Positions 8,232-43,397 of a stretch of DNA of 64,000 nt are shown here, in pieces. The number at the start of each line of letters is the position of its first letter. Position 1 is the stretch's first letter. The notes beneath the pieces are model-generated. The model had not been told where the DNA came from, did no database searches, and saw only the letters and a list, made by a program, of their open reading frames with translations. This stretch comes from Rhodospirillaceae bacterium. GTDB taxonomy: Bacteria; Pseudomonadota; Alphaproteobacteria; MPNO01; VGEU01. The stretch covers positions 21,316 through 85,315 of the forward strand of contig JBFWQM010000001.1 of the NCBI GenBank assembly GCA_050249455.1, written 5' to 3'. The position numbers and the translations under genes were made by a program.

Positions 8232-9344
8232 ATGACCGATCCCTACACCCTCCTGGGACCGCTGATCCGTGCGCTGCCGCCCGAGGCCGCCCATCGCCTG
8301 GCCATCGCGGCGCTGCGCCGCGGCCTGGTCCGCGCGCCGGCCGTTCCCGACGACCTGGTCCTCGCCGTCCGGCTGTGGGACATGACCTTCCCCAACCCGG
8401 TCGGCCTCGCCGCCGGCTTCGACAAGGGGGCGGAGGTCCCGGACGCCATGCTGGCGCTGGGCTTCGGCTTCGTGGAGGCGGGCACGGTGACCCCGCGGCC
8501 GCAGCCCGGCAACCCCAAGCCGCGGCTGTTCCGACTGTCGGCCGACCATGCGGTCATCAACCGCCTCGGCTTCAACAGCGAGGGGCTGGAGGCGGTGGCC
8601 GTGCGCCTGGCCGCGCGCCGCGGCCGGCCCGGCATCGTCGGCGCCAACGTGGGCCGCAACGCCGAGACGGCGGACGCGGTGGGCGACTTCGTGCAGGGCG
8701 TCGAACGGCTGGCGCCGCTGGCCGACTACGTGGTGGTCAACATCTCCTCGCCCAACACCAAGGGCCTGCGCGACATGCAGCGGCGGGCGAGCCTCGATGC
8801 GCTGGTGCGCCAGGTGGTCGCCGCGCGCGACCGCGCCGCCACCGCCGGCCGCCGGCCGCCGCTCCTGGTCAAGATCGCGCCCGACCTGGATGCCGAGGCG
8901 CGCGCCGACGTCGCCGCGGTCGTGCTGGCGCGCGGCGCCGACGGCCTGATCGTGTGCAACACGACGGTGGAGCGTCCGGCCACGCTGGCGGACCCGCAGC
9001 GGGGCGAGGCCGGCGGCCTGTCCGGCCGGCCGCTGTTCCCGATGGCGCTGGCGGCGGTCGCCGATATGTACCGGCTGACCGAAGGGCGGCTGCCGATCGT
9101 CGGCTCCGGCGGGATCGGCTCGGGCGAGGACGCCTACCGGATGATCCGCGCCGGCGCCTCGCTGGTGCAGTTCTACAGCGCGCTGGTGTTCGAAGGGCCC
9201 GGCCTGGCCGGGCGGATCAAGCGCGAGCTCGCCCAGCGCCTGCGCGCCGACGGGTTCCGCTCGGTCGCCGAGGCCGTCGGCGCCGATGCGCAACAGGTTG
9301 CCGAACAGGGTTTCCGGTCCGTTAACGCAATCTCAAGACCCTGA
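8232..9344 (+). CDS. pyrD: dihydroorotate dehydrogenase (quinone), class 2
   Basis: Motifs GFVEAGTVTPRPQPGNPKPRLFRL, INRLGFNSEG, NISSPNT and IVGSGGI. Confidence 0.9.
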   Translation: MTDPYTLLGPLIRALPPEAAHRLAIAALRRGLVRAPAVPDDLVLAVRLWDMTFPNPVGLAAGFDKGAEVPDAMLALGFGFVEAGTVTPRPQPGNPKPRLFRLSADHAVINRLGFNSEGLEAVAVRLAARRGRPGIVGANVGRNAETADAVGDFVQGVERLAPLADYVVVNISSPNTKGLRDMQRRASLDALVRQVVAARDRAATAGRRPPLLVKIAPDLDAEARADVAAVVLARGADGLIVCNTTVERPATLADPQRGEAGGLSGRPLFPMALAAVADMYRLTEGRLPIVGSGGIGSGEDAYRMIRAGASLVQFYSALVFEGPGLAGRIKRELAQRLRADGFRSVAEAVGADAQQVAEQGFRSVNAISRP

Positions 9345-9383: not shown

Positions 9384-10700
9384 ATGGCTTTCGTTCGACA
9401 CGTCTTCATAGCGCTGGCCTACGCGGTGCTCGCGGCCGGCGTAGCGCTCGCGCTTCCCATTTTCGTGCCCGCGATCCCGGGGCCGGTGGCGCTGGTGCTG
9501 GGCGCCACCGTGCTGGTCGCGGCGGCGCTGCTGCACGAGGTGTTCGCCCGCCAGGAAGAAGGCGGGCGCATCAGCGACGAGATCCACGAGCTGCGCCAGC
9601 AGAACGGCCGCATCATGCGCGAGTTGACCCGCGCGCGCGAGGAGGCGACCCGGCTGCAGGCCTCGATCACCGACCAGCTCGCGCGCAAGCCGGCGAAGGA
9701 CTGGGAGAAGGAGATCGACACCGTCGTCGCCGAGGTCCGCGTGTTGCAGACCCTGGTCGAGGAGATCACCGAGAACCGGCGCGCCGAGCAGGAGGCGACG
9801 GCCCGCGTGCCGGCGATGGTCGGCGCCGGCAACGGCGCCCCGCCGCCGCGGCCCGCCGCTGCCGCCCCGGCGGCGCCGGCCGTCCCGGCAGCCGCGCCGG
9901 CACCGGCGCCGTCGCCCACCGCCCCGCTCAAATATGCGCCGCGCGACCTCGACGACTCGACCGTCCTCGGCATCATCCGCGACGGCCTGCGCTCCGACCG
10001 GGTCGACCTGTTCCTGCAGCCGGTGGTCAGCCTGCCGCAGCGCAAGCGCCGCTACTTCGAGGCGTTCACCCGCATCCATACGCCCGAAGGCCTGATCGTG
10101 GCGCCGGAGCAGTACATCGCGCTGGCCGAGCGCGAGGGCCTGGTCGCGGCGCTGGACAACCTGCTCCTTTTCCGCTGCATCCAGCTTCTGCGCAAGCACC
10201 AGCGGCGGGCGGAGAGCTTCGGCTTCTTCTGCAACATCTCACCGCATACCATCGCCGACCGCACCTTCTTCCGCGACTTCGTGGACTTCATGGGCGAGAA
10301 CAGCCAGCTCGCGCCGCGGCTGGTGTTCGAGATGCCGCAGGCGACCCTGTTCGGCGCCGACGAAGACCTGGCGGAAGCGCTGCGCCGGCTGTCGGCGGCC
10401 AGCTTCCGCTTCTCGATGGACCAGGTGACCAACCTCGACATCGACTTCGCGGCGCTGTCGGCGCGCAACATCCGCTTCGTGAAGGTCGACGCCCGGCAGC
10501 TCGTGGCCGAGCTCGAGCACCCAACCTTGCGCTTCCCGCCGCAGGAGCTGAAGCGCAGGCTGGCCGGCCAGGGCATCGACCTGATCGCGACCAAGGTCGA
10601 AACGGAGGCCACCCTGCGCGACGTGCTCGACCTCGAGATCGACTACGGCCAGGGCTACCTGTTCGGCGAGCCCCGCCCCGGCTCGGACACCGCGCTGTGA
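9384..10700 (+). CDS. membrane-anchored coiled-coil EAL-domain protein (degenerate DDFGTG motif)
   Basis: 438 aa. It has an N-terminal hydrophobic region, a coiled-coil-like segment, a Pro/Ala linker, then an EAL domain (QPVVSL..RYFEAFTRI, FFCNISP, VFEMPQ, KVD, ATKVETE, QGYLFGEP). The usual DDFGTG is replaced by MDQVTN. Confidence 0.85.
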   Translation: MAFVRHVFIALAYAVLAAGVALALPIFVPAIPGPVALVLGATVLVAAALLHEVFARQEEGGRISDEIHELRQQNGRIMRELTRAREEATRLQASITDQLARKPAKDWEKEIDTVVAEVRVLQTLVEEITENRRAEQEATARVPAMVGAGNGAPPPRPAAAAPAAPAVPAAAPAPAPSPTAPLKYAPRDLDDSTVLGIIRDGLRSDRVDLFLQPVVSLPQRKRRYFEAFTRIHTPEGLIVAPEQYIALAEREGLVAALDNLLLFRCIQLLRKHQRRAESFGFFCNISPHTIADRTFFRDFVDFMGENSQLAPRLVFEMPQATLFGADEDLAEALRRLSAASFRFSMDQVTNLDIDFAALSARNIRFVKVDARQLVAELEHPTLRFPPQELKRRLAGQGIDLIATKVETEATLRDVLDLEIDYGQGYLFGEPRPGSDTAL

Positions 10701-11587
10701 TGGCGGCGATGCCGGACGCGATCCCGTTCCACGCCGGCGTGTCGCAGATCGCCGATCGCTACGACGGCTTCATCCTTGACGTGTGGGGCGTGATCCACGA
10801 CGGGATGAAGCTGTACCCCGGCGTCGTAGACTGCCTGACCCGCATGGCGGGCGCCGGCAAGCGCTTCGTCATGCTGTCCAACGCGCCCCGCCGCGCGCAT
10901 GCGATCGGCGAGGCGATGCGGGGCATGGGCGTGCCGGCGGATTTCTGTCGCGACATCATGTCGTCGGGCGAGGCGACCTACGAGGCGCTGGCGAAGCGCC
11001 CAGACGCCTGGTACGCCGCGCTCGGCAGGCGATGCCTGCACGTCGGGCCAAAGCGCGACGAGAATCTGTTCGAGGGCCTCGGCCTCACGCGCACGACCGG
11101 CGCGGAGGAGGCCGACTTCATCCTCAACACCGGGCCGTGGCGCGACGAGGAAACGGTCGCCGACTACGAGACGCTGCTGCAGGCCGGCGCGCGGCGCAAG
11201 CTGCCGATGATCTGCGCCAACCCCGACCTGGTGGTGATCCGCGGCGGCACCAAGATCATCTGCGCCGGTGCGCTGGCGCTGCGCTACGAGGCGCTGGGCG
11301 GCGACGTGCGCTGGCTCGGCAAGCCGCACGCCGACATCTACGACTTCTGCTTCTCCCGGCTCGGCATCGCCGACCGGCGCCGGATCGCCGCGATCGGCGA
11401 TTCGCTGCGCACCGACGTGGCCGGCGCCGCCGCCGCCGGGATTGACGCGATGCTGGCGACCGGCGGCATCCATGCCGACGAATTCGGCGTCGCGGCCGGC
11501 GTGCAGCCCGACGCCGCCAAGGTCCTCGCCGCGTGCGAACGCGAGGGCCACTTCCCGGCCGGCCTGCTGCCCGGCCTGGTCTGGTAG
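10697..11587 (+). CDS. HAD-superfamily hydrolase (subfamily IIA, TIGR01459-like)
   Basis: 296 aa with the DVWGVIHDG nucleophile motif, LSNAPR, and C-terminal AIGDSLRTDVAGA. Its start overlaps the EAL gene stop (GTGATG). Confidence 0.8.
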   Translation: MMAAMPDAIPFHAGVSQIADRYDGFILDVWGVIHDGMKLYPGVVDCLTRMAGAGKRFVMLSNAPRRAHAIGEAMRGMGVPADFCRDIMSSGEATYEALAKRPDAWYAALGRRCLHVGPKRDENLFEGLGLTRTTGAEEADFILNTGPWRDEETVADYETLLQAGARRKLPMICANPDLVVIRGGTKIICAGALALRYEALGGDVRWLGKPHADIYDFCFSRLGIADRRRIAAIGDSLRTDVAGAAAAGIDAMLATGGIHADEFGVAAGVQPDAAKVLAACEREGHFPAGLLPGLVW

Positions 11588-11644: not shown

Positions 11645-14600
11645 ATGGCACGGATGGCCGACACCCAGATGAAATTCGAAGGCGGGCACACCGCAACATT
11701 CTCCGCCGCGGCGTTCGCGGCGGGCGGACCGACCAGGACGGACCGGAAGATGAACCAGATTGCCAAGCGCCCCGACCCGGATGCGCGCGCGCAGGCCGCG
11801 CCCGACCCGACCGGCCTGTTCGCCGGCGTCGTCGCCTCAACGATCTGGGTGCTCCTGTGGGCGCTCTACATCCAGGCCAGCGTCGGCTGGGACCTCGTGA
11901 TGGCGCTCCTGCCGCACGAGGTCGCCGTCATCTTCCTGTCGATGGCGGTGCCGCTGGCGGTGATCTGGCTGATTGTCCTGTTTGTCCGTCGCACCCGCGC
12001 CGAATCGCGCGAGATCCGCACCGTGCGCGACGACGTGCGCCGGCTGCTGGCGCCGTCGGCCGTCGCCAACAGCGACCTCGCCACCCTGAACGAGGTGCTC
12101 CACGTCCGCATGCGCGAGATCGGCAATGCCGCCGACGAGGTCTCGGTCGACATCCGGATGCGCCTCGACGCCGTCGCCGACCAGCTGCGCCGCCAGATGA
12201 CCGACCTCAACCACGCCGCCGACGTTGCCGCCGGGCAGGCCGCGCAGCGCGTGCTCTCGGTCGGCGAGGCGTTGCGCCAGCAGACCGACGACCTGACCCA
12301 CGCCGTCGAGCGCGCCAACGCGCTGGCGGAGGAAAAGGCGCGTGCCATCGCCGAGGTGATGCGCGCGCGCATGCTCGAGGTCGCCGTCGCCTCCGACGAG
12401 GCGATCGCCGAGACCGAGGCGAAGGCCAGCGGCGTGGCCGACGCGCTGCGCCGCGAGATGCTGTCGATCGCCGCCGCGACCGACCAGGCGGCGGCCGAGG
12501 CGCGCGGGCGCATGCAGGCACTGGCCGAGGCGCTGCGCGACGAGCTGTCGGACCTCGAATCCGCGATCGAGCGCGCCAACGCCGCCGCGGCGGAGAAGGC
12601 GCAGGCGATCTCCGCCACGCTGCAGACCCAGACCCGCGAGATCGACAGCGTCGCCGACCAGGCGCTGCGCGCGACCGAGACCAAGGCGGTCGCCGTCGGC
12701 GAGATCCTGCGCAAGGCGGTGCTGTCGGTGGCCGACGCCTCCGACCAGGTCGCGATCGACTCGCGCGACAAGATCCTCTCGGTGGGCGATGCGCTGCGCG
12801 CCCAGTCCGACGCGCTGCACCGCTCGGTGGAAGCCGCCGGTACGCTGGCGGAGGAGAAGTCGCAGGCGATCGCCGCGCTGATGGACGACCAGGTGCGCGG
12901 CATCGCCGCCGCCTCCGAGCGCGCCGTCGCCGACACGGCGGCCCAGGCCGCCGCCGCCGCCCAGGCCCTGCACCGCACGCTCGAAGGCCAGGCGGAATCG
13001 CTGCGCCGGTCGCTCGATTCCACGGGCGCGCTGGCGGAAGACCGCGCGCGCTCCATCGGCGCGCTGATGGACGGCCAGGTGCTGAGCTTCGCCACCGCAT
13101 CAGACCGCATCATCGTCGATACGGAAGCGCGCGTGATCAAGGTCGGCGAGAGCCTGCGCCAGGCCGTGCAGTCGGTGGCCGATGCGGCCGACCGGGCCGC
13201 GGTCGAATCGCGCGACAAGGTGCTGTCGGTGCGCGAGGCGCTGAAGGCGCAGTCGGATGCGCTGGCGCGCGCGGTCGAGGCGGCCAACGCGCTGGCGGAG
13301 GAAAAGGCCCACGCCATCGGCGCGATCATGGAAGAGCAGGTGCGCGGCATCGCCGCCGCCTCCGACCTCATCGTCGCGGAAACGGAGGACAAGGCGCATG
13401 CCGTCGGCGACGTCATGCGCAAGGAGATGCTGGCGGTCGCGCTCGCCTCGGACCAGGCGGTCGCCGATGCGCGCGGCAAGGCGATGGCGGTCGGCGACGT
13501 GCTGCGCCATCAGATGAACGACGTGAACGCCGCCGTGGAGCTCGCCAGCGCCGAAGCCGAGACGCGCGTGCAGTCGATCGGCGAGGCGCTGCGGCGCGAG
13601 ATGGCGGCGATCGCCGACGCGACCGATGCCGCGTCGACCGACGCCCAGTCCCGCATCGACGCGCTCGGCGCCGCGCTGCGGCGCGAGATCGACGCCGCCG
13701 ACGAAGCGGTCCGCCACAGCACCGCGGCGACGACGGCGCGCGCGCGCGAGCTTGGCGCGGCGCTTGGCGAGCAGGTTGCCGCGATGACGGCGGCGTCCGA
13801 CCATGCGCTCGCCGACGCCGAAGCGAAGTCGCAGGCGATCGGCGAGATGCTGCGCCAGGAGGTGATCTCGATCGCCACCGCGGCGGAGCAGGGCGCCGGC
13901 GAGGCGCGGCGCAAGGTGGTCACCGTCGGCGAAGCGCTGAGCGCGCAGATGGAGGAGCTCAACGCCGCGGTGCAGCGCGCCGCCGCGCTGGCCGAGGACC
14001 GCGCCCGCGCGTTCGGCGCCGCGTTCGAGACGCGGGTGGCGGAGATCGCCGCCGCGGCGGACCGGGCGGCTGCCGATACCGAAGGAAAGACCCAGGCCAT
14101 CTCCGCGCTGCTGCGCCGCGAGGCTGCCGACATGGCCGTCGCGGCGGACCGCGCGGCGGCCGAGGCGCGCGCCAAGGTGGAGGCGATCGGCGAGACCCTG
14201 CGCCACGAGATGGATGGCCTCGCCACCGCGATCGACCGGACCAACGTGCTGGCGGAGGAGCGCGCCCGCGCCATCGGCATCGTGCTGCGCAGCCAGGTCC
14301 ACGACATTGCCGCCGCGTCCGACGAGGCGGTGGCGGAGACCGAGACGCGCGCCCACGCCGTCCAGGAGATCCTGCGCCGCCACGTGCTGGCGATCGGCGA
14401 CAGCCTGCGCCAGGAGACCGACGGCTTCGCCACGACGCTCGACCACGCCAACGCGCAGGCGGAGGAACGCGCCCGCGCATTCGGCGCCATCCTGCGCGGC
14501 CAGGTCCGCGACATTGCCGCCGCGTCCGGCGAGGCGGTGGCCGAGACCGAGGCGCGCGCCCAGGCGGTTCAGGAGATCCTGCGCCGCCAGGTGGAGGCGA

Positions 14601-17542
14601 TCGCCGTCTCCGCCGACCAGGCCTCGGGGGAGGCGCGCGCGAAGGTGCAGGCGCTCGGCGAATCGCTGCGCGTCGAGATGCAGTCGGTGACCGAGACGTC
14701 GACGCGGCTGGCGACCGACGCCACGGCGCGCATCCAGTCGGCGTCCGACGTCCTGCTCGACCAGGTCAACACGCTGACCATGGCGTCCGAGCGCGCGGCG
14801 AGCCAGGCCGAGGTGCTGCACGACATGCTCGACCGGCAGACCGAGCGGCTGGAGCACGCGTCCGCCAACGCGGCGCAGACCACCGAGACGGCGCGCGAGC
14901 TGATCGAGCGCCACGCCCGCGACCTGGAGCAGGTGACGGCGGCGGCGATGACCCGCGTCACCGACCTGGGCGATGCGGTGCGCGCCCAGATCGATGCGTT
15001 CATCGCGGCGACCGAGACCGCGGCGGACGGCGCGCGCGCCACCACCGACGACGTGCGCGCGCAGATCACCGAACTGTCCGCCGACTTCCGCATGGTGGCC
15101 AACGACGTCGATTCGACCGCGGCGGCGATGAACGCGCATGCGCGCGCGCTGGCCGCCGCCTCGCACGAGGCGATCGCCTCGCTGCGCGAGGTGGGCGAGC
15201 TGATGCAGAGCCAGGGCGACGGCGTGGGCGCCGCCTCGACCAAGGCGGTCGCCTCGGTGTACGAGGTGAACGCGCTGCTCAACCGCTCCTCCGGCGACAT
15301 GGCGGGCGCCGCCGACCGGCTGACCGCGAAGGTGCGCGACGCCGGCACGGCGCTGCGCACGGAAGCCGGCGCCTTCGACGCCGCGACCGACCGCGTCGCG
15401 GAGCGCGTCGCCGCATTCGCGGCGCTGGCCGGCGAGCGTCATGCGGCGTTCGCCGCCGCCTGCGATGCCGCGGTCAACCAGGCCGCCGCCAGCATCGACG
15501 CCATCGGCACCCGCGCGCACGAAGCGGCGGGCGCGCTGGCGACCGCCAGCGAGGCGATGGCCCTGCGCGCTGGCGACACCGCGGCGCGCATCGTCGCCGA
15601 CGTCGATGCGGCGGCGCAGCGCTTCGATGCCGGTGCGGGCGCGCTGATCGACCGCGCGGCCGGCCGGCTCAACCGGCTGGGCCAGGACATCGCCGCCCGC
15701 GCCGCCGACGCGACGACCGCGAGCGACGATGCGGCCGAGCGCACGACCGCGGCGATCGCCGCCCTCGCGGCGGAGCTGCGGGCGCGGTCGGCCGAGTTCA
15801 TCGCGGTCGCCGAGCAGGTCGCGGCGGAAGCCGGCGGCCGGCTGGACGCGGTCGGCGCCGCGGTGCGCCGCAACGCCGAGGGCGCCGACGCGGCGATCGA
15901 CCGCACCGCCGCGCACGTCGAGGCAAAGGTCATCGACATCGAGGGCCGCCTGCGCCAGCACGCCGAGCAGGTGGAGCGCGGGGTCGAGGAGACCGTCGCC
16001 CGCGCCGCCGGCCGGGTGGAGGCGCTCAACACCGGCGTCCAGCAGCAGGCCAGCCGCATCGCCGGCCTGTCCGCCGAGACCGCGCAGAACCTGGCGGTCG
16101 CGCTCGAGTCCGTCGGCGAATCGGTGCGCGCGCACAGCCAGTCGCTGGAATCGTCGATGGCGCGCGCCGGAGACGTCGCCGCCGCCGCCGCCGAACAGGT
16201 GCAGCGCGACGTGACGGGACGGCTGTCGGAGATCGGCATCGCGCTGGAGGCGCAGGCGGCTGCGGTGCGCGGCGCCGCCGACGAAGCCGTGGCGCATGTC
16301 CTGGCGCGCAGCGACGAGGCGGGCGCGGCGCTGCACCTGCGCGCGGATGCGATCGTCACCGCGACCGACCTCGCGTCGCAGCGCATCGCCGCCGCCGGGG
16401 AATCGCTGGAGCGTCAGGCGGCGGTCATGGCCGAGGCCGCAGGCACGGCGCAGGAGCGGGCGGCGGACGTCGGCGACACCTTCGCACGCCAGGCCGGCGC
16501 GCTTATGTCGGCGTCGCAGGACGCGGTGTCGCGCGCCGCGCAGGTGCGCGACCTGCTGACCAGCCAGGGCGAGACGCTGCAGCGCATCCTGTCCGACGTG
16601 GATTCGCGCGGCGCCAGCATCGGCGGCGCGCTGGGCGACCAGTTCGAGCGGCTGTCGGCCACCGCGGCGACCGCCGCCAGCGCCGTCGACGCGCTCGGCG
16701 CGGAGATCGGGCGCCAGGCCGGGGCGCTCGCCGCGGCCTCGCAGGATTCGGTCGGGCGGCTGGAGGCCGTGATGGCGGCGTGCCGCGAGACCGCGACCGG
16801 CATGGCCGGCGTCGCCGCCAGGGCGGCCACCGACGTCGAGACCCTGGCCGGCGCGCTGAAGGACCAGTCCGGCAGCATCGAGACCGCCGCGCAGGTGGCG
16901 GAAGAACGGGTCGCCGGCATCGGCAGGGTGTTTGGCCAGCAGGCCGACGACCTCAACGCCGCCGCCGACAAGGCGAGCGCCCAGGCGGCCCGCTTCGGCG
17001 AGCAGCTGCGCCAGCACGTGCTGGAGCTCGCCGAATCGCTCGACCGCATCACCGCGCAGTCTGGCTCGATCGGCGACACCTTCAAGGAGCAGGCGCAGAA
17101 GCTGGTCGACGCCGCGGCCGAGGCCGAGAAGCAGGCCCGCGTCATCCGCGAGAACGCGTTCGACGCCCGCCGCGACGCCTTCCTCAGCACCGCCAAGTTC
17201 GTGGTGGAGGACCTGCAGTCGACGTCGATCGACATCACCCGGGTGATCGACCAGCAGAAGGCGCAGAAGCTCTGGAACAAGTTCACCAAGGGCGACCGCG
17301 GCATCTTCGTGCGCACCATGCTGTCCGACGACGAGCGCCGCGCCCGCACGGTGATCGGCGAGAAGTACGAGCGCGACGAGACGTTCCGCCGCTACGTGAC
17401 CCGCTACCTCGACCACTTCGAGAAGCTGATCAACGAGGCGCATGAGAGCGACCCCGACAACCTGCTCGCCTCCACGTTCCTTTCCGCCGACGTCGGCAAG
17501 CTGTATACGCTGCTCGCCAAGTCGGTCGGCCGGATGAACTGA
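11645..17542 (+). CDS. giant (1,965 aa) membrane-anchored Ala/Glu/Arg-rich repeat protein, unknown function
   Basis: Two hydrophobic segments near the N-terminus (LFAGVVASTIWVLLWALYI, VAVIFLSMAVPLAVIWLIVLFV). About 30 regular 29-residue repeats follow, then degenerate repeats. A non-repetitive C-terminal domain ends ...LSADVGKLYTLLAKSVGRMN. This frame has protein-like composition and G/C-rich third positions, unlike the overlapping open frames. Confidence 0.8.
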   Translation: MARMADTQMKFEGGHTATFSAAAFAAGGPTRTDRKMNQIAKRPDPDARAQAAPDPTGLFAGVVASTIWVLLWALYIQASVGWDLVMALLPHEVAVIFLSMAVPLAVIWLIVLFVRRTRAESREIRTVRDDVRRLLAPSAVANSDLATLNEVLHVRMREIGNAADEVSVDIRMRLDAVADQLRRQMTDLNHAADVAAGQAAQRVLSVGEALRQQTDDLTHAVERANALAEEKARAIAEVMRARMLEVAVASDEAIAETEAKASGVADALRREMLSIAAATDQAAAEARGRMQALAEALRDELSDLESAIERANAAAAEKAQAISATLQTQTREIDSVADQALRATETKAVAVGEILRKAVLSVADASDQVAIDSRDKILSVGDALRAQSDALHRSVEAAGTLAEEKSQAIAALMDDQVRGIAAASERAVADTAAQAAAAAQALHRTLEGQAESLRRSLDSTGALAEDRARSIGALMDGQVLSFATASDRIIVDTEARVIKVGESLRQAVQSVADAADRAAVESRDKVLSVREALKAQSDALARAVEAANALAEEKAHAIGAIMEEQVRGIAAASDLIVAETEDKAHAVGDVMRKEMLAVALASDQAVADARGKAMAVGDVLRHQMNDVNAAVELASAEAETRVQSIGEALRREMAAIADATDAASTDAQSRIDALGAALRREIDAADEAVRHSTAATTARARELGAALGEQVAAMTAASDHALADAEAKSQAIGEMLRQEVISIATAAEQGAGEARRKVVTVGEALSAQMEELNAAVQRAAALAEDRARAFGAAFETRVAEIAAAADRAAADTEGKTQAISALLRREAADMAVAADRAAAEARAKVEAIGETLRHEMDGLATAIDRTNVLAEERARAIGIVLRSQVHDIAAASDEAVAETETRAHAVQEILRRHVLAIGDSLRQETDGFATTLDHANAQAEERARAFGAILRGQVRDIAAASGEAVAETEARAQAVQEILRRQVEAIAVSADQASGEARAKVQALGESLRVEMQSVTETSTRLATDATARIQSASDVLLDQVNTLTMASERAASQAEVLHDMLDRQTERLEHASANAAQTTETARELIERHARDLEQVTAAAMTRVTDLGDAVRAQIDAFIAATETAADGARATTDDVRAQITELSADFRMVANDVDSTAAAMNAHARALAAASHEAIASLREVGELMQSQGDGVGAASTKAVASVYEVNALLNRSSGDMAGAADRLTAKVRDAGTALRTEAGAFDAATDRVAERVAAFAALAGERHAAFAAACDAAVNQAAASIDAIGTRAHEAAGALATASEAMALRAGDTAARIVADVDAAAQRFDAGAGALIDRAAGRLNRLGQDIAARAADATTASDDAAERTTAAIAALAAELRARSAEFIAVAEQVAAEAGGRLDAVGAAVRRNAEGADAAIDRTAAHVEAKVIDIEGRLRQHAEQVERGVEETVARAAGRVEALNTGVQQQASRIAGLSAETAQNLAVALESVGESVRAHSQSLESSMARAGDVAAAAAEQVQRDVTGRLSEIGIALEAQAAAVRGAADEAVAHVLARSDEAGAALHLRADAIVTATDLASQRIAAAGESLERQAAVMAEAAGTAQERAADVGDTFARQAGALMSASQDAVSRAAQVRDLLTSQGETLQRILSDVDSRGASIGGALGDQFERLSATAATAASAVDALGAEIGRQAGALAAASQDSVGRLEAVMAACRETATGMAGVAARAATDVETLAGALKDQSGSIETAAQVAEERVAGIGRVFGQQADDLNAAADKASAQAARFGEQLRQHVLELAESLDRITAQSGSIGDTFKEQAQKLVDAAAEAEKQARVIRENAFDARRDAFLSTAKFVVEDLQSTSIDITRVIDQQKAQKLWNKFTKGDRGIFVRTMLSDDERRARTVIGEKYERDETFRRYVTRYLDHFEKLINEAHESDPDNLLASTFLSADVGKLYTLLAKSVGRMN
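12080..14820 (+). repeat. in-frame tandem 87-nt (29-codon) coding repeats, arranged in 3-unit super-repeats
   Basis: Hand-counted consecutive units are exactly 29 aa. Examples: KARAIAEVMRARMLEVAVASDEAIAETEA, KASGVADALRREMLSIAAATDQAAAEARG, KAHAVGDVMRKEMLAVALASDQAVADARG. Confidence 0.85.
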
Positions 17543-17581: not shown

Positions 17582-17662
17582 GGGGGCCCCCCCCCCCCCA
17601 CCCCCCCCCGGGGGGGGGGGGAGATCCCCCACCCCACCGGGGTGGGGTGTGGGGGGGGGGGG
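17582..17662. repeat. cluster of long C and G homopolymer runs with palindromic character
   Basis: G5, C13 (17587-17599), A, C9 (17601-17609), G12 (17610-17621), AGAT, CCCCCACCCCACC (17626-17638), GG, then GGTGGGGTGT plus G12 (17651-17662). Confidence 0.9.
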
Positions 17663-17689
17663 TCTCAACCAGTCGATGCCGGAGCCGCC

Positions 17690-18877
17690 GTGACGCCCCT
17701 GTTCCTGACCGTCCTCGTCGACATGGTCGGGTTCGGCATCGTGATCCCGCTGCTGCCGTTCTATGCCCAGAAGTTCGGCGCCTCGCCCGACCTGGTGACC
17801 CTGACGGTCGCCGCCTACACCCTGACCCAGTTCGTGTTTGCGCCGCTGTGGGGCCGGATCAGCGACCGCTACGGCCGCCGGCCGGTGCTGCTGGTCACCC
17901 TGGCCGGCACCGCGCTGTCCTATGTGTGGACGGGGCTGGTCGAGTCGCTGGCCATGCTGTTCGTCGCGCGCGCCTTCGCCGGCGCCTGCGCGGCCAACAT
18001 GGCGGTGGCGCACGCCTATGTCGCCGACGTCTCGGCGCCGGAGCACCGGGCGCGCGACATGGGCCGCATCGGGGCGGCATTCGGCATGGGCTTCGTGCTC
18101 GGGCCGGCGATCGGCGGGTTCCTCGCGGGGCCGGGCGGCGAGCCGGACTTCGCGTCGCCGTTCTGGTTCGCCGCCGGCCTGTCCGCGGTCGCCTGGGCGC
18201 TGGCGTGGCTGCGGCTGCGCGAGACCACCGACCCGGCGATGCGTCAGGCCGCGGCCGCCGCGCCGCGGCAGGGGCGGCTGGCCGCCCTGCTTGCGGGCGC
18301 GCGCCAGCCGCGGCTCGGCCGCCTGATCGGCCTAGCCTTCATGATGCCGTTCGTGTTCTCCGGGGTGGAGACGACGTTCGCCCTGTGGTCGGAGCGGGCG
18401 CTGGGCTGGGGCCCGGCGGAGAACGGCTACGTCTACACCTACATGGGCGTCGTCGCGGTGCTGGCGCAGGGGCTGGCAGTCGGCCGGCTGGTCCGCGCGG
18501 TGGGGGAGCGGCGGGCGGTGACGATCGGGGCGGCCGCCGTGCTGGCCGGCTGCCTGCTGCTGCCGTTCGCGTTGACCATCGCGCCGCTGCTGGCCGCGCT
18601 GGGGCTGATCGTGTTCGGGGTGTGCATCACCGGCTCGTCGCTCAACAGCCTGATCTCGCTCGAATCCGCCGCCCATGCCCGCGGCGCGACCCTGGGCCTC
18701 GGCCAGGCGTCCTCGGGCCTCGCCCGCATCCTGGGGCCGGCGCTCAACGGATTCGCCTTCGTCGGGCTGGGGCGCGATGCGCCCTATTTCCTCGGCGCGG
18801 TCGTGATGGTCGTCATGCTGGTCCTCGCCCGCGGCATCGTGGCGCCGGCCCGGCCCCGCGGCGGCGAAGAAACTTGA
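17690..18877 (+). CDS. MFS transporter (Tet/drug-H+ antiporter-like)
   Basis: Typical MFS N-terminus LTVLVDMVGFGIVIPLLPFY and the loop motif GRISDRYGRRPVLL. Start is set to GTG 17690 because GGAG lies 5 nt upstream. The track start at 17642 lies inside the G-run. Confidence 0.8.
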   Translation: MTPLFLTVLVDMVGFGIVIPLLPFYAQKFGASPDLVTLTVAAYTLTQFVFAPLWGRISDRYGRRPVLLVTLAGTALSYVWTGLVESLAMLFVARAFAGACAANMAVAHAYVADVSAPEHRARDMGRIGAAFGMGFVLGPAIGGFLAGPGGEPDFASPFWFAAGLSAVAWALAWLRLRETTDPAMRQAAAAAPRQGRLAALLAGARQPRLGRLIGLAFMMPFVFSGVETTFALWSERALGWGPAENGYVYTYMGVVAVLAQGLAVGRLVRAVGERRAVTIGAAAVLAGCLLLPFALTIAPLLAALGLIVFGVCITGSSLNSLISLESAAHARGATLGLGQASSGLARILGPALNGFAFVGLGRDAPYFLGAVVMVVMLVLARGIVAPARPRGGEET

Positions 18878-18954
18878 CCCGGCCGGCCCCGGCGGCTTAA
18901 AAGCACCGTTTCCGGGCCGCAAGGTCCGCTTTTCGTATTTCGGGGACCGATCCG

Positions 18955-36334: not shown

Positions 36335-36475
36335 ATGATGAAGTTTACGGCGATGGTCGTCGTCGTCGCGGTCGTGGCGCTGCTCGGCGGGCTGGTGTTC
36401 CTGTCGATGTGGGACATCCCGCCGCCGTCGAAGCAGGTGGAGAAGGTCATCCCGAATGACCGCTTCCAGCGCTAG
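36335..36475 (+). CDS. small (46 aa) single-pass membrane protein
   Basis: [46 protein letters not shown] has one clean TM helix plus a polar tail. It overlaps the next gene's start by 20 nt. It is the 3' end of an otherwise off-frame-looking track ORF. Confidence 0.5.
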   Translation: MMKFTAMVVVVAVVALLGGLVFLSMWDIPPPSKQVEKVIPNDRFQR

Positions 36476-38318
36476 GCGACCCGGCGCGGCGCGCGCGGCA
36501 TTGGCCGCGGCGGCGTTTGCGGCCGGTCTTCTCGGCGCGGCGGCCGCAGCGCAGGACGCGCCGGGGCCGCCCGTTCGGCTGGTGCCGGCCCGGCCCGGCG
36601 CCGCGCCCGCGCCTCCGGCCGCCGCGGCGCCGGCGCCGACGGTCACCCCGCGCGCGGCGCCCCCGGACGGGCCGGCTGCCGCGTCTTCGCCCGCCCGCCC
36701 CGGCCGCAGCATCGAAGCGGTGCCGCTCGGCGCGCCCGACCCGGATTCGGTCGGCACGCTTGACACCGCCCAGGGCGGCTTCGGCGTCGACATGTGGGCC
36801 GAAACCGACCGCGCGGTGGTGGAGGCGCTGCTGCCGGCGCTGCCCGAGGCCTCCTCGCGCGCCGCCGCGGCGATGGCCCGCCGGCTCCTGCTCAGCCGCG
36901 CTGTCGCGCCCGCGGGCGCGCGGGGCGACGGCGTGCCCGCGGGCGCGCGGGGCGAAAGCCTGCTCGCGCTGCGCGCCGAGCGGCTGATCGCGATGGCCGA
37001 CGCCCGGGGCGCCGCGGCGCTGCTCGCCGCCGCGCCGCGCAGCGACGACGAGCGGCTGTCGCTGGCCGAGGCGGAGGCGCTGTTCCTCGCCAAGGACGAG
37101 AACGCCGCCTGCGCGCGGGTGCGCGCCGCGCCGCGCAGCTTCGCCAGCCCCTATTGGCAGCAGGCCGACGCGTTCTGCCTGGCGCTGACCGGCGACCATG
37201 CGCGCGCCGCGCTGAGCGCCAGCGTGCTGCGCGAACGCAGCCGCGAGGTGCCGGAAGGGTTCTTCGCCCTGATCGAGGCGCTGGGCGGCGACAAGCGGGT
37301 GGAAGTCGGGAAGCTGGAGCCGCCGCGCGCGCTGTACGGCGCGATGCTGCGCGCCGCCGCGGTGAAGCCGCCGCGCGCGCTGGCGGAAAGCAGGTCGCCG
37401 CTGCTGCTGCGTGCGGTCGCCGAAAGCGCCGCCGCCGATCCCGAGCAGCGGCTGGAGGCGGCGGAGCGCGCGGCGCGCCTGGGCATCCTGTCGCCGGAAG
37501 AGCTGGTCGCCGCCTACGAGGCGGTGACGCTCGATGCCAACGAGATGGCCGATCCGCTGACCGCCGCGGCGCGCAAGTGGGGGCCGCGGGCGCGTGCGCT
37601 GCTGCTGCGCGCGGTGTCGGTGCAGGTCACCCCGCAGGCCAAGGCGAGCCTGCTCAAGGCGGCGCTCGACCTCGCGCGCGGGCGCGACGGCCGCGACGTC
37701 CTGCTGCTCGGCGCCGGCGTCGGGCTGCGCGGCCTGCGGCCCGAGCAGTCGGTGGCGCCGGTCGCGGCGGATGCGGCGCGCGCGCTGATGCTCGGCGGAC
37801 GCATCGACGACGCGCTCGCATGGGTGCGCCTGGCGCGTGACGGCGCGCGCTTCGACCGCGACGTCGCCGCGGCGTGGCAGGCTTTGGTGCCGCTGGTGCT
37901 GATCGCCGAGCCCGACGACGACCCGGTGGGCGACAAGGCGACGATCGATCGCGCCCTGGCGCTGCCGGCGGATGCGGACGCCGCGGCCGTGCGCCGGCAA
38001 TTCCTGCGGCTCGCCGCGCTCGACGGCTTCGAGCGCGCGATCGGCACGCCGCGCTGGCTGGCGCTCAGCCGCGCCATGCGCGCCGCCCCGGTTGCCGCGC
38101 TCGCCGATCCGGCGCTGCTGCTGGCGCTGCGCGAGGCGGCCGCCGAAGGCAGGGTCGGCGAAACCGTCCTGCTCGCGCTGGTCGTGCTCGGCGGCGACGG
38201 CGCGGCCGCGGTGCAGCCGCCGACGCTCAACGCCGTCGTCGCGGCGCTGCGCACCGCCGGACTCGAGGCGGAGGCGCAGGCGATCGCCCTCGAAACGATG
38301 ATCCTGGCCGGCGACTAG
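36456..38318 (+). CDS. secreted Ala/Leu-rich helical-repeat protein, unknown function
   Basis: 620 aa with a signal-peptide-like N-terminus ([18 protein letters not shown]), a Pro/Ala linker, then a long helical region. Preferred over the antisense Arg/Gly-rich ORF 36447..38477. Confidence 0.65.
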
Positions 38319-39259: not shown

Positions 39260-40237
39260 GTGGCCGAAACAAGCCGCTCGATGCTGAGCCACCTCGACTT
39301 CGAGCAGTCGATCGTCGAGCTCGAGACCAAGATCGAGGAGCTGCGCCACCTGTCGGACGCCAGCGACCTCAAGATCGCCGGCGAAGTGTCGCGGCTGCAG
39401 GCGCGCCTCGACCGCATGCTGCGCCAGGCCTACGCCAAGCTCAGCCCCTGGCAGAAGGTGCAGGTCGCACGCCATCCGCGCCGGCCGCATTGCCAGGACT
39501 TCATCGACGGCCTGATCACCGACTTCACGCCGCTGGCCGGCGACCGCGGCTTCGCCGAGGACGCAGCCATCGTCGGCGGGCTCGGCCGGTTCCGCGGCGA
39601 GAGCGTCGTGGTGATCGGCCAGGAGAAGGGCGCCGACACCGACTCTCGGGTGAAGCACAATTTCGGCATGGCCAAGCCCGAAGGCTACCGCAAGGCGCAG
39701 CGCCTGATGCAGCTCGCGGAGCGCTTCGGCCTGCCGGTCGTCACGCTGGTCGACACCCCCGGCGCCTATCCCGGCGTCGGCGCGGAGGAGCGCGGCCAGG
39801 CCGAGGCGATCGCGCGCTCGATCGACGTGTGCCTGTCGCTGCAGGTGCCGGTCGTCGCCACCGTGATCGGCGAAGGCGGCTCCGGCGGCGCCATCGCGCT
39901 CGCCGCCGCGGACAGGGTGCTGATGCTGGAGCACGCGGTCTATTCGGTGATCTCGCCGGAAGGCTGCGCCTCGATCCTGTGGCGCAACGGCGCCAATGCG
40001 AAGGAGGCGGCGGAGGCGCTGAAGCTCACCGCTTCCGACCTGCTGCAGCTGCGCGTGATCGACGAGGTGGTGCCGGAGCCGGTCGGCGCCGCGCACCGCA
40101 GCCCTGAGGAGGCGATCCGCCGCACCGGCGATGCGATCGAAGCGGCGCTGCGTCCGCTCGCGGCCGAGGACGGGCCGGCGCTCAAGGCGCGCCGGCGCGA
40201 CAAGTTCCTTGCCATCGGCGCGCAGTTCGTCCTTTAG
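39260..40237 (+). CDS. accA: acetyl-CoA carboxylase carboxyltransferase alpha subunit
   Basis: [48 protein letters not shown]-like [12 protein letters not shown]. An alternative ATG start is at 39281. Confidence 0.9.
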
Positions 40238-40250
40238 CGCGGAGCCGCGG

Positions 40251-41771
40251 GTGGGCCGTTGGCTCGCGCTCGGGCTGTTCGCTGTCGCGCTGCCCGCCGC
40301 CAAGGCCGCGCTCATCTACCTCGCCGGCCACGCCAACCACGACGTCGCGTGGCTTCTGGTCGCCGCCGAGCGGCTGTTCGACGGCGGGCGCTACTACCAC
40401 GACATCCTGGAGCCAAACCCGCCGGTGACGCTGGCGGTGATGGCGCCCGGCCTGGTCATCGACGACCTGCTCGACATCGCGACCTATCCCGCCTACCTCG
40501 CCTGGGTCGTCGCGCTGATCGCCTTGTCGTCGCTGCTAACGTGGCGCAGCCTGCCGCGCGCGCTCGGCCGCGGCCCGTCCGACCCGCTGCCGGAGGCTTG
40601 GCTGGTGCCGGCGGCCCTGTGCCTGTTCCCGTGGTACGGCTTCGGCCAGCGCGAGCACCTGTTCGTCATCCTCTATCTGCCGGCCCTGGCGATGTTCCAG
40701 GCCGAGTGCCGCGGCCCCGGCCGCACGCGCGCGGCGTTCGCGGTGCCGGTGATGGCGCTGGCGACCTTCGGCCTGCTGATGAAGCCGTACTGGCTGCTGA
40801 TCCCCGCCGCGCAGGTCGCCCTGGCGCTGGTCGATGGCCGGCCGGTCCGGCGGTTCGTGCTGCTGGCGGCGCCGACCGCGACGGCGGTGGTCGCCGTCCT
40901 GGCCGCGCTCAACTGGTCGCTGCTCCACGAGTGGCTGAGCGTCGTGCCGCTGGCGACCGCGGTGTACGACGCCTATGACGACCCGCTGTGGCTGCCCAAG
41001 CTGCTGCCGCACGCGGCGATGATCGCGCTGGTCTGGGCGGCGCATCGCTACATGGTGCGCGACCGCGGCTCGACCGCGGTGGTCGTGCGCGACACGCTCG
41101 CCGCGGCGGCGGCGGCACTGGTGGTGGTGTTCCTGCAGCGCAAGGCGTTCCCCTATCACCTGCTGCCGACCATCCAGCTCACCGCGCTGGCCGCCGGCGT
41201 CGTGCTGCTGCGGCTCCTGAGCGACGGCGTCGCGCTGCGCCGCCCGGCCGTCACGCCGCGCGCGGCGGTGGCGCTGGTGTGCGCCGGCCTGGTGTTCCAG
41301 GCGGCGCCGGTGCTCTACCGCGCGTTCCGGCCCGTCCCGGCGGAGGAGCGCGAGCTGATCGCGCTGGCCGCGGGACCGGCGGCGGGACGGCCGTTCCTCG
41401 CCGTGTCGACCAGCGTGTGGCCCGCGTTCCCGATGGCGCTCGACAGCGGCGCGCAGTGGGTGGGCCGGGTCGGCTGCCAGTGGATGATCCCCGGTGCGCT
41501 GCGCCTGTCGCAGGGCGCGAGCGACGGCGACCGCGCGCAGGGCGCGCACTATGCCGGCATCGCGCTGGCCATGCTGGCCGAGGACATCGCCCGCGGCCGC
41601 CCGGCGGTGCTGGCGGTCGCGATCGGCGCGGACGGGCAGGGCCTCGACGGCCCGTTCGACCTGCTGGCCTACCTGCGCAGCCACGACGGCCTGCGCGGCG
41701 AGCTCGATGCCTACCGCGAGCGCGCCCGCGGCGCCTACTGGGCGGTCTACGACCGCGTGTCGCCGGGCTGA
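40251..41771 (+). CDS. polytopic membrane protein, paralogue 1 of 3 (GT-C-glycosyltransferase-like loop motifs)
   Basis: 506 aa from GTG 40251, with GGAG 6 nt upstream. Shares motifs with the two downstream ORFs: H-x-NHD-x-x-WL, E-x-x-PP, PEAWLV, FGQ(R/K)EHLF, LMKPYWLL, Q(R/L)K-x-x-x-YH-x-LP, WPAFP, QW-x-x-PGA. Confidence 0.7.
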   Translation: MGRWLALGLFAVALPAAKAALIYLAGHANHDVAWLLVAAERLFDGGRYYHDILEPNPPVTLAVMAPGLVIDDLLDIATYPAYLAWVVALIALSSLLTWRSLPRALGRGPSDPLPEAWLVPAALCLFPWYGFGQREHLFVILYLPALAMFQAECRGPGRTRAAFAVPVMALATFGLLMKPYWLLIPAAQVALALVDGRPVRRFVLLAAPTATAVVAVLAALNWSLLHEWLSVVPLATAVYDAYDDPLWLPKLLPHAAMIALVWAAHRYMVRDRGSTAVVVRDTLAAAAAALVVVFLQRKAFPYHLLPTIQLTALAAGVVLLRLLSDGVALRRPAVTPRAAVALVCAGLVFQAAPVLYRAFRPVPAEERELIALAAGPAAGRPFLAVSTSVWPAFPMALDSGAQWVGRVGCQWMIPGALRLSQGASDGDRAQGAHYAGIALAMLAEDIARGRPAVLAVAIGADGQGLDGPFDLLAYLRSHDGLRGELDAYRERARGAYWAVYDRVSPG

Positions 41772-41834: not shown

Positions 41835-43397
41835 ATGGCATCGACCGCCCACACCCACGGCCTCACGCCCGGCGCGACGCGCCGGACGTCTTCCCAGCAG
41901 CTGGCGCTGGCCGTGTTCGCGGTGGCGCTCGCCGGCGCCGCGGCCGCGGTGCTGGCGCGTTACGGTCACGTCAACCACGACACCGTCTGGCTGGTCATGG
42001 CGGCCGAGCGCCTGCTCGACGGCGGACGCTATATCGACGACGTCCTGGAGCTGAGCCCGCCGGTCCTGCTGGCCGCCTACATGCCCGGCGCGGTCGCCGG
42101 CCGCGTGTTCGGGATCGACCCCTATGCCGCCCATCTCGGCTGGGTCGCGCTGCTGATCGCGGGGGCGACCCTGCTGTGCCGGCCCGGGCTGCAGCGCCTG
42201 TTCGACCGGGCCGACGGCCAGCCGCTGCCGGAAGCCTGGCTGGTGCCAGTCGTGCTCGCGGCGATGCCGGGCTACGACTTCGGCCAGAAGGAGCATCTGT
42301 TCGTCATCCTGTCCCTGCCGGCGCTGGTGCTGCTGGCCGCGGAACGGCAGCGGCCGGGGACGCCGGCCGGCCTGGTGATCGCCGCGACCGTGCCGGCGGC
42401 GGTGGCGCTGACGATGAAGCCGTACTGGCTGCTGGTGCCCGCGGCGCTCGTCGCGTGGGCGGCGCTCGGCCCCAGGGTCGGACGCCGGTTCGCGGCCGTC
42501 GCGCTTGCGGCCGCTGCCGCCGCGGTCGCCGCCATAGCCGTCGCGACCCTGGCCGGATACGCCGGCTGGGCGACGATCGCCGGCTGGGCGACGGAGCTGC
42601 ACGATGCGTTCGGCGTCGCGCCGGCGCGGCTCGCGCGGCGGACGGAGACGGCGGCGATCGTGCTGGTCTTCGCGGCCGCGGCGACCGGCGCCTTCCTGCC
42701 GCGCGGCACGGCCGCGCGCACGCTCGCGGGAGGGCTCGTCGTCGCGGCCGCCGCGGCGTTCGCCGCGGCGCTGCTCCAGCGCAAGGGCTGGGCCTACCAC
42801 CTGCTGCCCGTGGTGCAGTGCGCGACGCTGGCGATCGGCCTGGTGGTGCTCCGCCTCCTGCGCGACCGCGACGTGCCGCGACGGCTTGCCGGCGGCCTTC
42901 TCGTCGCGGTCGCGATGACGACCGTCGTGCAGCACGTCTACCTCGCGGTGAACCGGGCGTTCCGGTCGGACCCCGCGTTCGTCGGCGAATTCGCGGCGCA
43001 CCTGCGCGACCATGCCGCCGGCCGCAGCTTCCTCGCGATCTCCACAAACCAATGGCCGGCGTTTCCCGCGGTGGTCCTGGCCGGCGCGCGCTGGGTGTCG
43101 CGTGCGCCGCATCAGTGGATGTTCCCCGGCGCCGTGCGCCTACTCTCCGGCGACGCCGAACAGCGGGCGCGCGGCGCGCATTACCGCGACATGGCGCTGG
43201 CCATGATCGCCGACGACATCGAGCGCCACCGCCCGCACGCCATCGCGATCGACGTCGGCGCCGACCAGCAGGGCGTCGGCGATGGCTTCGACATGCCGGG
43301 CTTCCTGCGCCAGGATCCGCGGCTGCGCGCGCTGCTCGACGGCTATCGCGAGGTCGCGCGCGACGACCGCTGGGTCTTCTATGTCGCCGGCCCGTGA
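41835..43397 (+). CDS. polytopic membrane protein, paralogue 2 of 3
   Basis: 520 aa with the same motif set and length as paralogue 1. The start is uncertain because there is no strong RBS. Confidence 0.7.
   Translation: MASTAHTHGLTPGATRRTSSQQLALAVFAVALAGAAAAVLARYGHVNHDTVWLVMAAERLLDGGRYIDDVLELSPPVLLAAYMPGAVAGRVFGIDPYAAHLGWVALLIAGATLLCRPGLQRLFDRADGQPLPEAWLVPVVLAAMPGYDFGQKEHLFVILSLPALVLLAAERQRPGTPAGLVIAATVPAAVALTMKPYWLLVPAALVAWAALGPRVGRRFAAVALAAAAAAVAAIAVATLAGYAGWATIAGWATELHDAFGVAPARLARRTETAAIVLVFAAAATGAFLPRGTAARTLAGGLVVAAAAAFAAALLQRKGWAYHLLPVVQCATLAIGLVVLRLLRDRDVPRRLAGGLLVAVAMTTVVQHVYLAVNRAFRSDPAFVGEFAAHLRDHAAGRSFLAISTNQWPAFPAVVLAGARWVSRAPHQWMFPGAVRLLSGDAEQRARGAHYRDMALAMIADDIERHRPHAIAIDVGADQQGVGDGFDMPGFLRQDPRLRALLDGYREVARDDRWVFYVAGP

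Follow-up and report, generated by a model that had tools for sequence, protein, structure and literature searches.

We analyzed a 64-kb stretch of DNA (here, the window) from a Rhodospirillaceae bacterium, centering on a giant gene for a membrane-anchored repeat protein and on the genes that surround it. An initial annotation of the window had described this gene as encoding a 1,965-amino-acid (aa) protein made largely of 29-residue units, and had likened the protein to polar landmarks and scaffolds of alphaproteobacteria such as TipN and the growth-pole-ring protein GPR. The listing of open reading frames (ORFs) in the window places the gene at 11645..17542 on the + strand, with an ATG start and a product of the expected 1,965 aa whose translation agrees with the residues quoted in that annotation. 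The parts of the gene and of its product, here called the giant protein, are as follows.

11645..17542, + strand: giant gene, homolog of GPR/RgsE (ORF listing, GC3/GC2, RgsE alignment)
11816..11986, + strand: membrane anchor, two transmembrane helices and a short loop (hydropathy)
12113..14680, + strand: 30-unit array of 29-residue repeats, residues 157-1012 (autocorrelation, hidden Markov model, hydrophobic period)
14167..14580, + strand: 207-nucleotide (nt; 69-codon) tandem duplication within the array, 2.1 copies at 84% identity (Tandem Repeats Finder score 616)
14681..17134, + strand: degenerate helical rod, residues 1013-1830, proline-free (lags, hydrophobic period)
17135..17539, + strand: conserved, globular, all-alpha C-terminal domain, residues 1831-1965, seven helices (profile search, AlphaFold2)

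Reading frame, anchor, and repeat rod of the giant protein

The frame of the giant ORF has a GC content of 0.95 at third codon positions (GC3) and 0.51 at second positions (GC2), the coding signature of a 72% GC genome. It is the only long ORF at 11645-17542 that passes a filter for this signature; overlapping ORFs of 1,970 and 1,648 aa in other frames fail it and are shadow ORFs. Translation of a different frame or strand, which the initial annotation had named as a way in which it might be wrong, is thus not what the GC3/GC2 test of these rival ORFs indicates, and a wrong-frame or shadow origin of the giant ORF itself is excluded by its GC3 and by the conservation of its product. The start codon is less firmly placed. 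A second in-frame ATG at 11654, three codons past 11645, has the better Shine-Dalgarno spacing, as a Shine-Dalgarno-like GAGG abuts the ATG at 11645 and lies 9 nt ahead of the one at 11654. The true start may be 11654, with a product of 1,962 aa.

Searches of the whole protein against Pfam, NCBIfam, and PDB sequences revealed no catalytic domain, in keeping with the initial annotation, which had recognized none. Pfam returned a subthreshold match to Apolipoprotein (PF01442) that covers nine stretches (54.7 bits against a gathering cut-off of 90, E 1.4e-14). There were zero matches in NCBIfam and zero in the PDB sequence search, and an exact-sequence look-up of the protein found no record.

Near the N terminus, hydropathy analysis places the two hydrophobic helices that had been noted before at approximately residues 58-80 and 93-114, with hydropathy peaks at residues 58-76 and 95-113 and window values of 2.1 and 2.8. 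The loop between them bears a clade-conserved IGW...LLPHE motif, and every clade ortholog that could be read through to its start codon has this hairpin and motif as well. The anchor also aligns with that of a 774-aa Sphingomonas homolog (E 0.017), and Pfam finds nothing in the isolated N-terminal anchor. Because Arg/Lys-rich flanks lie on the N-terminal side of the anchor and past the second transmembrane helix, the bulk of the giant protein is predicted to be cytoplasmic.

The 29-residue period was upheld by each of three formal analyses. Residue-identity autocorrelation, computed for residues 130-1050, averages 0.114 with a standard deviation of 0.03 and has its peaks at lags of 87 (0.299) and 29 (0.281). 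A profile hidden Markov model of the unit recovers 30 units within residues 157-1012, and the start-to-start spacing projected from it is exactly 29 in 27 of the 29 intervals; the initial annotation had counted, by hand, about 30 units of exactly 29 residues. In the hydrophobicity spectrum of residues 157-910, a single peak dominates, at a period of 3.627 residues (29/7.99). Its power is 632, compared with a mean shuffle maximum of 71 +/- 12 (200 shuffles). The hydrophobic stripe therefore follows the proposed 29-residue geometry, and not a heptad period of 3.5. The derived consensus, xx(I/L/V)AaAsDrAxAeAEx(K/R)AxA(V/I)GeaLRxq(V/M), is the one given earlier in another register. Grouping of the units into 87-residue triplets, also proposed earlier, is clear in the first 10 units (identity of 0.37-0.40 at a lag of 3 or 6 units versus 0.21-0.25 otherwise) and weak in the next 15.

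Two intervals depart from the regular spacing. One measures 33 residues, near residues 447-451, and reflects a 4-residue insertion near residue 450. The other contains an 11-residue stub at 914-925, the sole place where a partial unit breaks the 29-residue register, and is attributable to the 207-nt tandem duplication at 14167-14580. The remaining copies in the array are only 60-78% alike at the DNA level, so the array is old and the unit length has been maintained, and the duplication, being more alike, is probably more recent than the other copies. Beyond the array, the more degenerate half described earlier spans approximately residues 1013-1830, with lags of 25 and 29 and hydrophobic periods of 3.56-3.60. 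Proline is absent from residue 138 to residue 1936. In all, the rod comprises ~1,710 residues, is acidic (net charge of about -88), and as one continuous helix would have a computed length of ~256 nm, ~128 nm of it contributed by the 29-mer array.

Within each unit, the apolar stripe occupies core positions 3, 7, 10, 14, 18, 21, 25, and 29. Their spacing of 4-3-4-4-3-4-4-3 corresponds to one heptad and two hendecads (7+11+11), and they cover ~100 degrees of a 3.625-residue wheel, with four large (I/L/V/M) and four small (A/S/V) positions per 29 residues. Gruber and Lupas reportedly cataloged non-heptad coiled-coil periodicities of 11/3, 18/5, 25/7, and 29/8. With eight core positions per 29 residues, the giant protein falls into the last of these classes, although such a class is a geometric description and not a protein family. 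Since the stripe is narrow, Ala-rich, and repeats every 29/8 = 3.625 residues, helix-helix packing nearly free of supercoiling is expected, and the rod helices should pack as near-untwisted bundles or fibers and not as heptad supercoils or lipid-coating helices. The fold predicted here is drawn from the periodicity of the rod.

The C-terminal domain and the GPR/RgsE family

The rod runs directly into a C-terminal domain of ~135 aa. The initial annotation had called this region unique and ~150 aa long; a distinct, conserved domain is indeed present, though somewhat smaller. An exhaustive profile search with the domain matched 1,935 cluster representatives at E<=1e-3. Among the 150 matches listed, the domain lies nearly always at the C-terminal end of proteins of up to 1,900 aa, behind helical regions of highly variable length, and many of these proteins measure 800-950 aa. 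The cluster names of 20 family representatives are uninformative ("hypothetical," "kinesin," "SbcCD," "methyl-accepting chemotaxis protein"). An AlphaFold2 model based on 41 diverse sequences predicts a compact seven-helix domain with a mean predicted local distance difference test (pLDDT) score of 94 and a predicted template modeling (pTM) score of 0.86; an alignment of 11 close sequences only had given a pLDDT of 58.5. The domain shows no apparent catalytic motif. Two of its glycines (G53 and G121 in domain numbering) never vary, and several Phe, Arg, and Asp residues recur in 90% or more of the sequences. No Pfam model covers it when it is searched in isolation, and a Foldseek search of the PDB with the model gave no convincing match (best E 0.12, TM-score 0.27); the globin, Sso2, and P450 rows returned by Foldseek are noise. 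A domain that is confidently predicted and yet a fold orphan appears to be undescribed so far.

This domain connects the giant protein to the GPR/RgsE family. Residues 1849-1965 align with residues 1973-2089 of Sinorhizobium meliloti RgsE at 38% identity and 61% positives, without gaps (E 7e-26). The RgsE sequence was taken from a related locus (L062 3082-9351), where the ORF has the published 2,089 aa, is annotated as "kinesin," and lies beside petABC. The record in question, CP090106.1, is titled "plasmid pSymB" but is 3.72 Mb in size, carries folP, petABC, and rgsE, and looks like a mislabeled S. meliloti chromosome, which accounts for a chromosomal rgsE in a plasmid collection. The last 116 residues of GPR likewise align with the giant protein at 38% identity (E 5.6e-22), here using a sequence machine-read from Fig. 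S3 of Zupan et al. 2021. In tblastn searches, the C-terminal domain matched Sinorhizobium and Shinella at 38%, and the domain of the 774-aa Sphingomonas homolog aligns with an E of 6e-22. GPR and RgsE also share an architecture in which a two-transmembrane-helix anchor is followed by a helix of ~1,700 aa (PMC8262873, PMC7327166). On the strength of the C-terminal alignment, the anchor, and the long helix, the giant protein is very probably a Rhodospirillales member of the GPR/RgsE scaffold family. The earlier suggestion of a GPR-like polar scaffold, offered without any claim of homology, thus gains a gapless alignment in its support.

A match to a characterized family had been named in advance as a possible refutation. 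The match exists in part, in GPR and RgsE, and it lowers the novelty of the finding without contradicting the interpretation. Krol et al. 2020 mentioned "more distant homologs" of RgsE in Emcibacterales and Rhodospirillales (PMC7327166); they also reported that the other Rgs proteins are absent from the orders of those homologs and suggested a different role there (PMC7327166). Rhodospirillales homologs are therefore already in the literature, and the family is known and partly characterized rather than categorically new.

The likeness to GPR (Atu1348, 2,115 aa) and RgsE (SMc00190, 2,089 aa) extends to overall size, to ~117 aa of homology at the very C terminus, and probably to ~1,700 aa of continuous helix with weak, subthreshold similarity to PF01442. 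The differences lie in the rod, the linker, and the locus. The giant protein repeats every 29 residues (3.625 per turn), whereas GPR and the Rhizobium homolog are hendecad-based, with repeats of 22/44 residues and ~3.65 residues per turn: autocorrelation peaks at lag 22 for GPR, at lags 44/88/22/11 for the Rhizobium homolog, and at 29/87 for the giant protein. The proline-rich, disordered linker of GPR (residues 1890-2000) is absent from the giant protein. The giant gene has no upstream Hpt gene and is linked instead to genes for a TipF-like protein, a HAD hydrolase, and a major facilitator superfamily (MFS) transporter. Finally, its host is a Rhodospirillales metagenome-assembled genome (MAG), from an order without the other Rgs polar-growth proteins (PMC7327166). 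SecA from the window matches that of a MAG labeled Rhodospirillales bacterium at 100% identity, and the next relatives stand at 94%, 81%, and ~75%.

Periodicity and length vary across the family as a whole. The median hydrophobic period of 67 long family representatives is 3.573 (25/7), as against 3.629 (29/8) for the giant protein, and a 25-residue periodicity dominates among its syntenic relatives, such as the Tagaea group (1,772-1,977 aa). Seven loci (L001, L002, L007-L010, and L019) have lag 29 or 58 as their top peak. The strict 29/8 repeat appears to be undescribed so far; it is one of several discrete classes of periodicity within the family. As a separate observation, in three family representatives of ~1,270 aa (P0125, P0163, and P0133) a 25/7 period (3.571) is coherent over more than 1,000 residues, with a spectral power of ~950-1,170, above that of the giant protein. 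The rod is hypervariable in length: ORFs that could be followed to a start codon and measure 500 aa or more encode products of 544-2,032 aa. There are miniature versions as well: a 246-aa ORF (L030 9668-10408) retains both the two-helix hairpin and the C-terminal domain, a 175-aa ORF (L057 9644-10171) retains the hairpin with no more than the final ~40 residues of the domain, and a third (L025 9887-10408) is interrupted by an in-frame stop. Real rod deletions, pseudogenes, and repeat collapse in MAG assemblies are all possible explanations.

Gene neighborhood and the CtrA-box-like motif

The giant gene is flanked by the following features.

9322..9336, - strand: CtrA-box-like motif, TTAACGCAATCTCAA on the + strand and TTGA-N7-TTAAC on the - strand (motif scan)
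9384..10700, + strand: TipF-like gene, 438 aa, with a degenerate EAL domain (Pfam EAL 147.8 bits, NCBIfam NF051880)
10697..11587, + strand: HAD-IIA hydrolase of the TIGR01459 family (184.8 bits against a cut-off of 103.75)
17642..18877, + strand: MFS transporter downstream of the giant gene (syntenic)

The local order is TRAP transporter, pyrD, TipF-like EAL gene, HAD gene, giant gene, MFS gene, and rpmB, with cobT and a DnaJ-domain gene on the opposite strand. The start of the HAD gene overlaps the stop codon of the TipF-like gene by 4 nt. No terminator-like hairpin was found from the TipF-like gene to the end of the MFS gene, and one is present past the latter, at 18913-18928.

Two hydrophobic helices at the N terminus of the TipF-like protein are followed by a heptad-like coiled coil and an Ala/Pro linker. 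Its C-terminal EAL domain is degenerate at the active site, with EAF instead of EAL and D-Q where the DD metal site would be. The protein matches NF051880 ("flagella assembly c-di-GMP phosphodiesterase TipF") with 270 bits (E 2.5e-80), compared with 76 for the next EAL family, and its best relatives in the PDB are the degenerate cyclic di-GMP (c-di-GMP) receptors LapD and FimX. In TipF itself, two transmembrane helices and a coiled coil precede a degenerate EAL domain (ESF, D-K), and the protein binds c-di-GMP without cleaving it (PMC3792480). The neighbor of the giant gene shares this layout and is a putative c-di-GMP receptor.

Whether an EAL gene always accompanies the giant gene was a question posed in the initial annotation. 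In the clade of the giant gene one nearly always does, and it is TipF-like. Among 58 related loci examined by tblastn, more than 40 carry the block pyrD-EAL-HAD-giant-MFS-rpmB, whole or in large part, at C-terminal-domain identities of 43-79% and GC contents of 41 to 74%. The distant group of Tagaea, Azospirillum, and Telmatospirillum also carries the block, and the distance between the TipF-like and giant genes does not exceed two to three genes across this deep clade. In that distant group, which includes the Tagaea-group loci of the 25-residue-repeat clade (e.g., L037 2271-4421), a methylmalonyl-CoA-mutase-like gene (716 aa in L037) lies between the HAD and giant genes.

A different arrangement is found in Rhizobium, Sinorhizobium, Govania, and Sphingomonas. 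There, a small, divergent Hpt-domain gene lies just upstream of the homolog (L059 2658-3041, L062 2096-2464, L060 7542-7844, and L063 4661-4954), and this Hpt gene is absent from the clade of the giant gene. Synteny with Rhizobiales was considered and rejected: in Rhizobium and Sinorhizobium, Hpt, Fer2, DUF922, and folP genes lie upstream, and isochorismatase or petABC genes lie downstream. Separately, a DUF2336 gene lies near the homolog in L060 and L061.

The CtrA-box-like motif precedes the start codon of the TipF-like gene by 48-62 nt and is the only match to TTAA-N7-TTAA, at one mismatch or fewer, in the 64 kb, where 0.14 would be expected. A similar box at the same tolerance is present in all 11 close-clade loci that have upstream DNA (L014, L015, L017, L018, L020, L022, L023, L026, L027, L028, and L057), against a background of 0.044 per 280 nt. 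Its form is TTAAC-N6-TCAA in most of these loci, and its distance to the start of the TipF-like gene is ~60 nt in most; in L057 the box occurs as two perfect TTAA-N7-TTAA copies. The box is conserved across genomes of 52-72% GC. A conserved cluster of TipF-like, HAD, and scaffold genes behind a CtrA-type box appears to be undescribed so far.

Elsewhere in the window, three tandem paralogous genes on the + strand (40131-41771, 41835-43397, and 43282-44892) encode multi-pass membrane proteins of ~520-546 aa. An N-terminal H-x-NHD-x-WL...AA-x-RL..GGRY...P-x-PP motif is common to all three proteins, and none of them matches Pfam at E<=1e-5. At 36456-38318, also on the + strand, lies a gene for a 620-aa Ala/Leu/Arg/Pro-rich protein with a signal-peptide-like N terminus, a Pro/Ala-rich segment, and no Pfam match. 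Rfam and tRNA scans across the window found nothing.

Candidate roles of the giant protein

We favor a reading in which the giant protein works as a polar landmark, and put its probability at roughly 0.6. In this model, the protein, anchored in the inner membrane by its tight two-helix hairpin, would be deposited at the closing septum or new pole, as RgsE, GPR, and TipN are, probably through the anchor and Tol-Pal, and would be kept there as a landmark. The deposition step is proposed by analogy with RgsE, which binds TolQ (PMC7327166), and with TipN, whose polar localization requires Tol-Pal (PMC7391070). Straight bundles formed by self-association of the rod would serve as a long spacer or scaffold, of up to ~250 nm at full extension, that holds the C-terminal domain off the membrane, and the domain would act as a docking module. 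In GPR, C-terminal truncations abolish function and leave ring formation intact (PMC8262873), and these results fit a docking or output role for the domain and an assembly role for the rod. The scaffold would then recruit the c-di-GMP-loaded TipF-like protein, encoded two genes upstream and apparently in one CtrA-type-controlled transcription unit with the giant gene, to site a flagellum or other pole functions. That the TipF-like protein is a direct client of the scaffold is the most tentative of these steps, and we give it somewhat less than even odds.

The closest precedent for such an arrangement is TipN, which recruits TipF in Caulobacter (PMC3792480). Caulobacter crescentus TipN (882 aa), a "birth scar" landmark of the new pole, resembles the giant protein in having two N-terminal transmembrane helices and a large cytoplasmic coiled coil (PMC4085708). 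Its partner TipF is a c-di-GMP receptor with the layout given above (PMC3792480), and the conserved neighbor of the giant gene is of this kind. TipN is also similar in size to the 800-950-aa GPR/RgsE-family members among the matches listed; the giant protein, unlike TipN, is highly repetitive and twice as long. GPR has itself been described as similar to TipN (PMC8546619). NCBIfam scans of the giant protein and eight family members gave no match to a TipN model. The tipN and tipF genes are not known to be adjacent in Caulobacter.

Several observations weigh against the landmark reading. What is known of localization and phenotype is confined to Rhizobiales members of the family, and the likeness to TipN is one of described architecture, not of compared sequence. 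The packing of the rod is a prediction from its periodicity. The TipF-like protein scores 270 bits, below the 600-bit equivalog cut-off of NF051880, and the Rhizobium, Sinorhizobium, Govania, and Sphingomonas loci have no TipF linkage. The block order could persist simply by descent among housekeeping genes (pyrD, rpmB, and cobT). Lastly, the CtrA-like motif upstream of the TipF-like gene deviates from the pattern at one position and runs into the final codons of pyrD.

The same neighborhood evidence bears on a related possibility, that the giant protein is a polar or septal scaffold whose clients are not flagellar (ParA and the chromosome, the Tol-Pal envelope machinery, or a phosphorelay) and that its TipF-like neighbor is a coincidence. 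RgsE interacts with TolQ, RgsA, and RgsS (PMC7327166), TipN is reported to affect chromosome segregation via ParA as well as envelope integrity (PMC10127582, PMC9731437), and the conserved neighbor in the four lineages outside the clade is an Hpt-domain gene and not tipF. Yet coincidence sits poorly with the close linkage of the TipF-like gene across deep divergence and with the conserved box upstream of it, and the locus of the giant gene has no ParA, Tol, or Hpt gene; we regard this alternative as quite unlikely. A role in polar growth is also less likely than that of a polar or division-site landmark acting with the TipF-like protein. Were the giant protein a true functional ortholog of GPR and RgsE, it would form a ring at the growing pole and organize polar peptidoglycan and membrane synthesis. 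The shared C-terminal domain and overall architecture speak for this, and loss of GPR or RgsE yields round or misshapen cells (PMC8262873, PMC7327166). The host, however, belongs to an order for which Krol et al. proposed a different role in view of its missing Rgs proteins (PMC7327166), the Pro-rich linker, 22/44-residue repeat, and Hpt-linked context of Rhizobiales are all lacking, and unipolar growth has been described for Rhizobiales, which lack MreBCD (PMC8546619), all of which makes functional orthology improbable.

The similarity to PF01442 raises the further question of whether the rod is an apolipoprotein-like lipid binder, its amphipathic helices coating membrane or lipid-droplet surfaces. 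Like the exchangeable apolipoproteins (apoA-I/A-IV/E), the giant protein has long runs of Ala/Glu/Arg-rich amphipathic helix, and the nine matched stretches at E 1.4e-14 recall GPR, which has been filed under PF01442 with a lipid role hypothesized (PMC8262873). The resemblance ends there: the score lies below the gathering cut-off, the unit is 29 residues and not 11 or 22, and proline punctuation is missing from the rod. The narrow stripe of ~100 degrees, with its four large and four small core positions, is coiled-coil-like and not a class-A face, and the giant protein, unlike apolipoproteins, is membrane anchored and, by its predicted topology, cytoplasmic. Lipid coating therefore seems very improbable.

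A broader extension of the landmark reading would make GPR/RgsE, the Rhodospirillales giant protein, and TipN a single ancient alphaproteobacterial family of birth-scar landmarks, although we think this unlikely to hold as a whole. The ancestral role would have been to recruit a TipF-type c-di-GMP receptor for flagellum or pole assembly under CtrA control; the cluster would survive in Rhodospirillales, and Rhizobiales would later have reused the scaffold for polar growth. The rod would then be a tunable ruler whose length (~400 to 1,800 residues) sets the geometry of polar assembly, as would its periodicity class (22/6, 25/7, or 29/8), with the 29/8 array forming a straight fiber of ~130 nm.

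So far, GPR/RgsE has been understood only as a polar-growth factor of Rhizobiales, and its role elsewhere was raised explicitly by Krol et al. 2020. The C-terminal domain is widespread (~1,900 sequence clusters) and has neither a Pfam model nor a PDB fold match. Within the family, discrete steps of 22, 25, and 29 residues, combined with a variable rod length, amount to a natural experiment in coiled-coil geometry. The conserved cluster of a TipF-like gene and a CtrA-type box points to flagellar or pole organization outside Rhizobiales, and raises the possibility of a common origin for the TipN and GPR systems.

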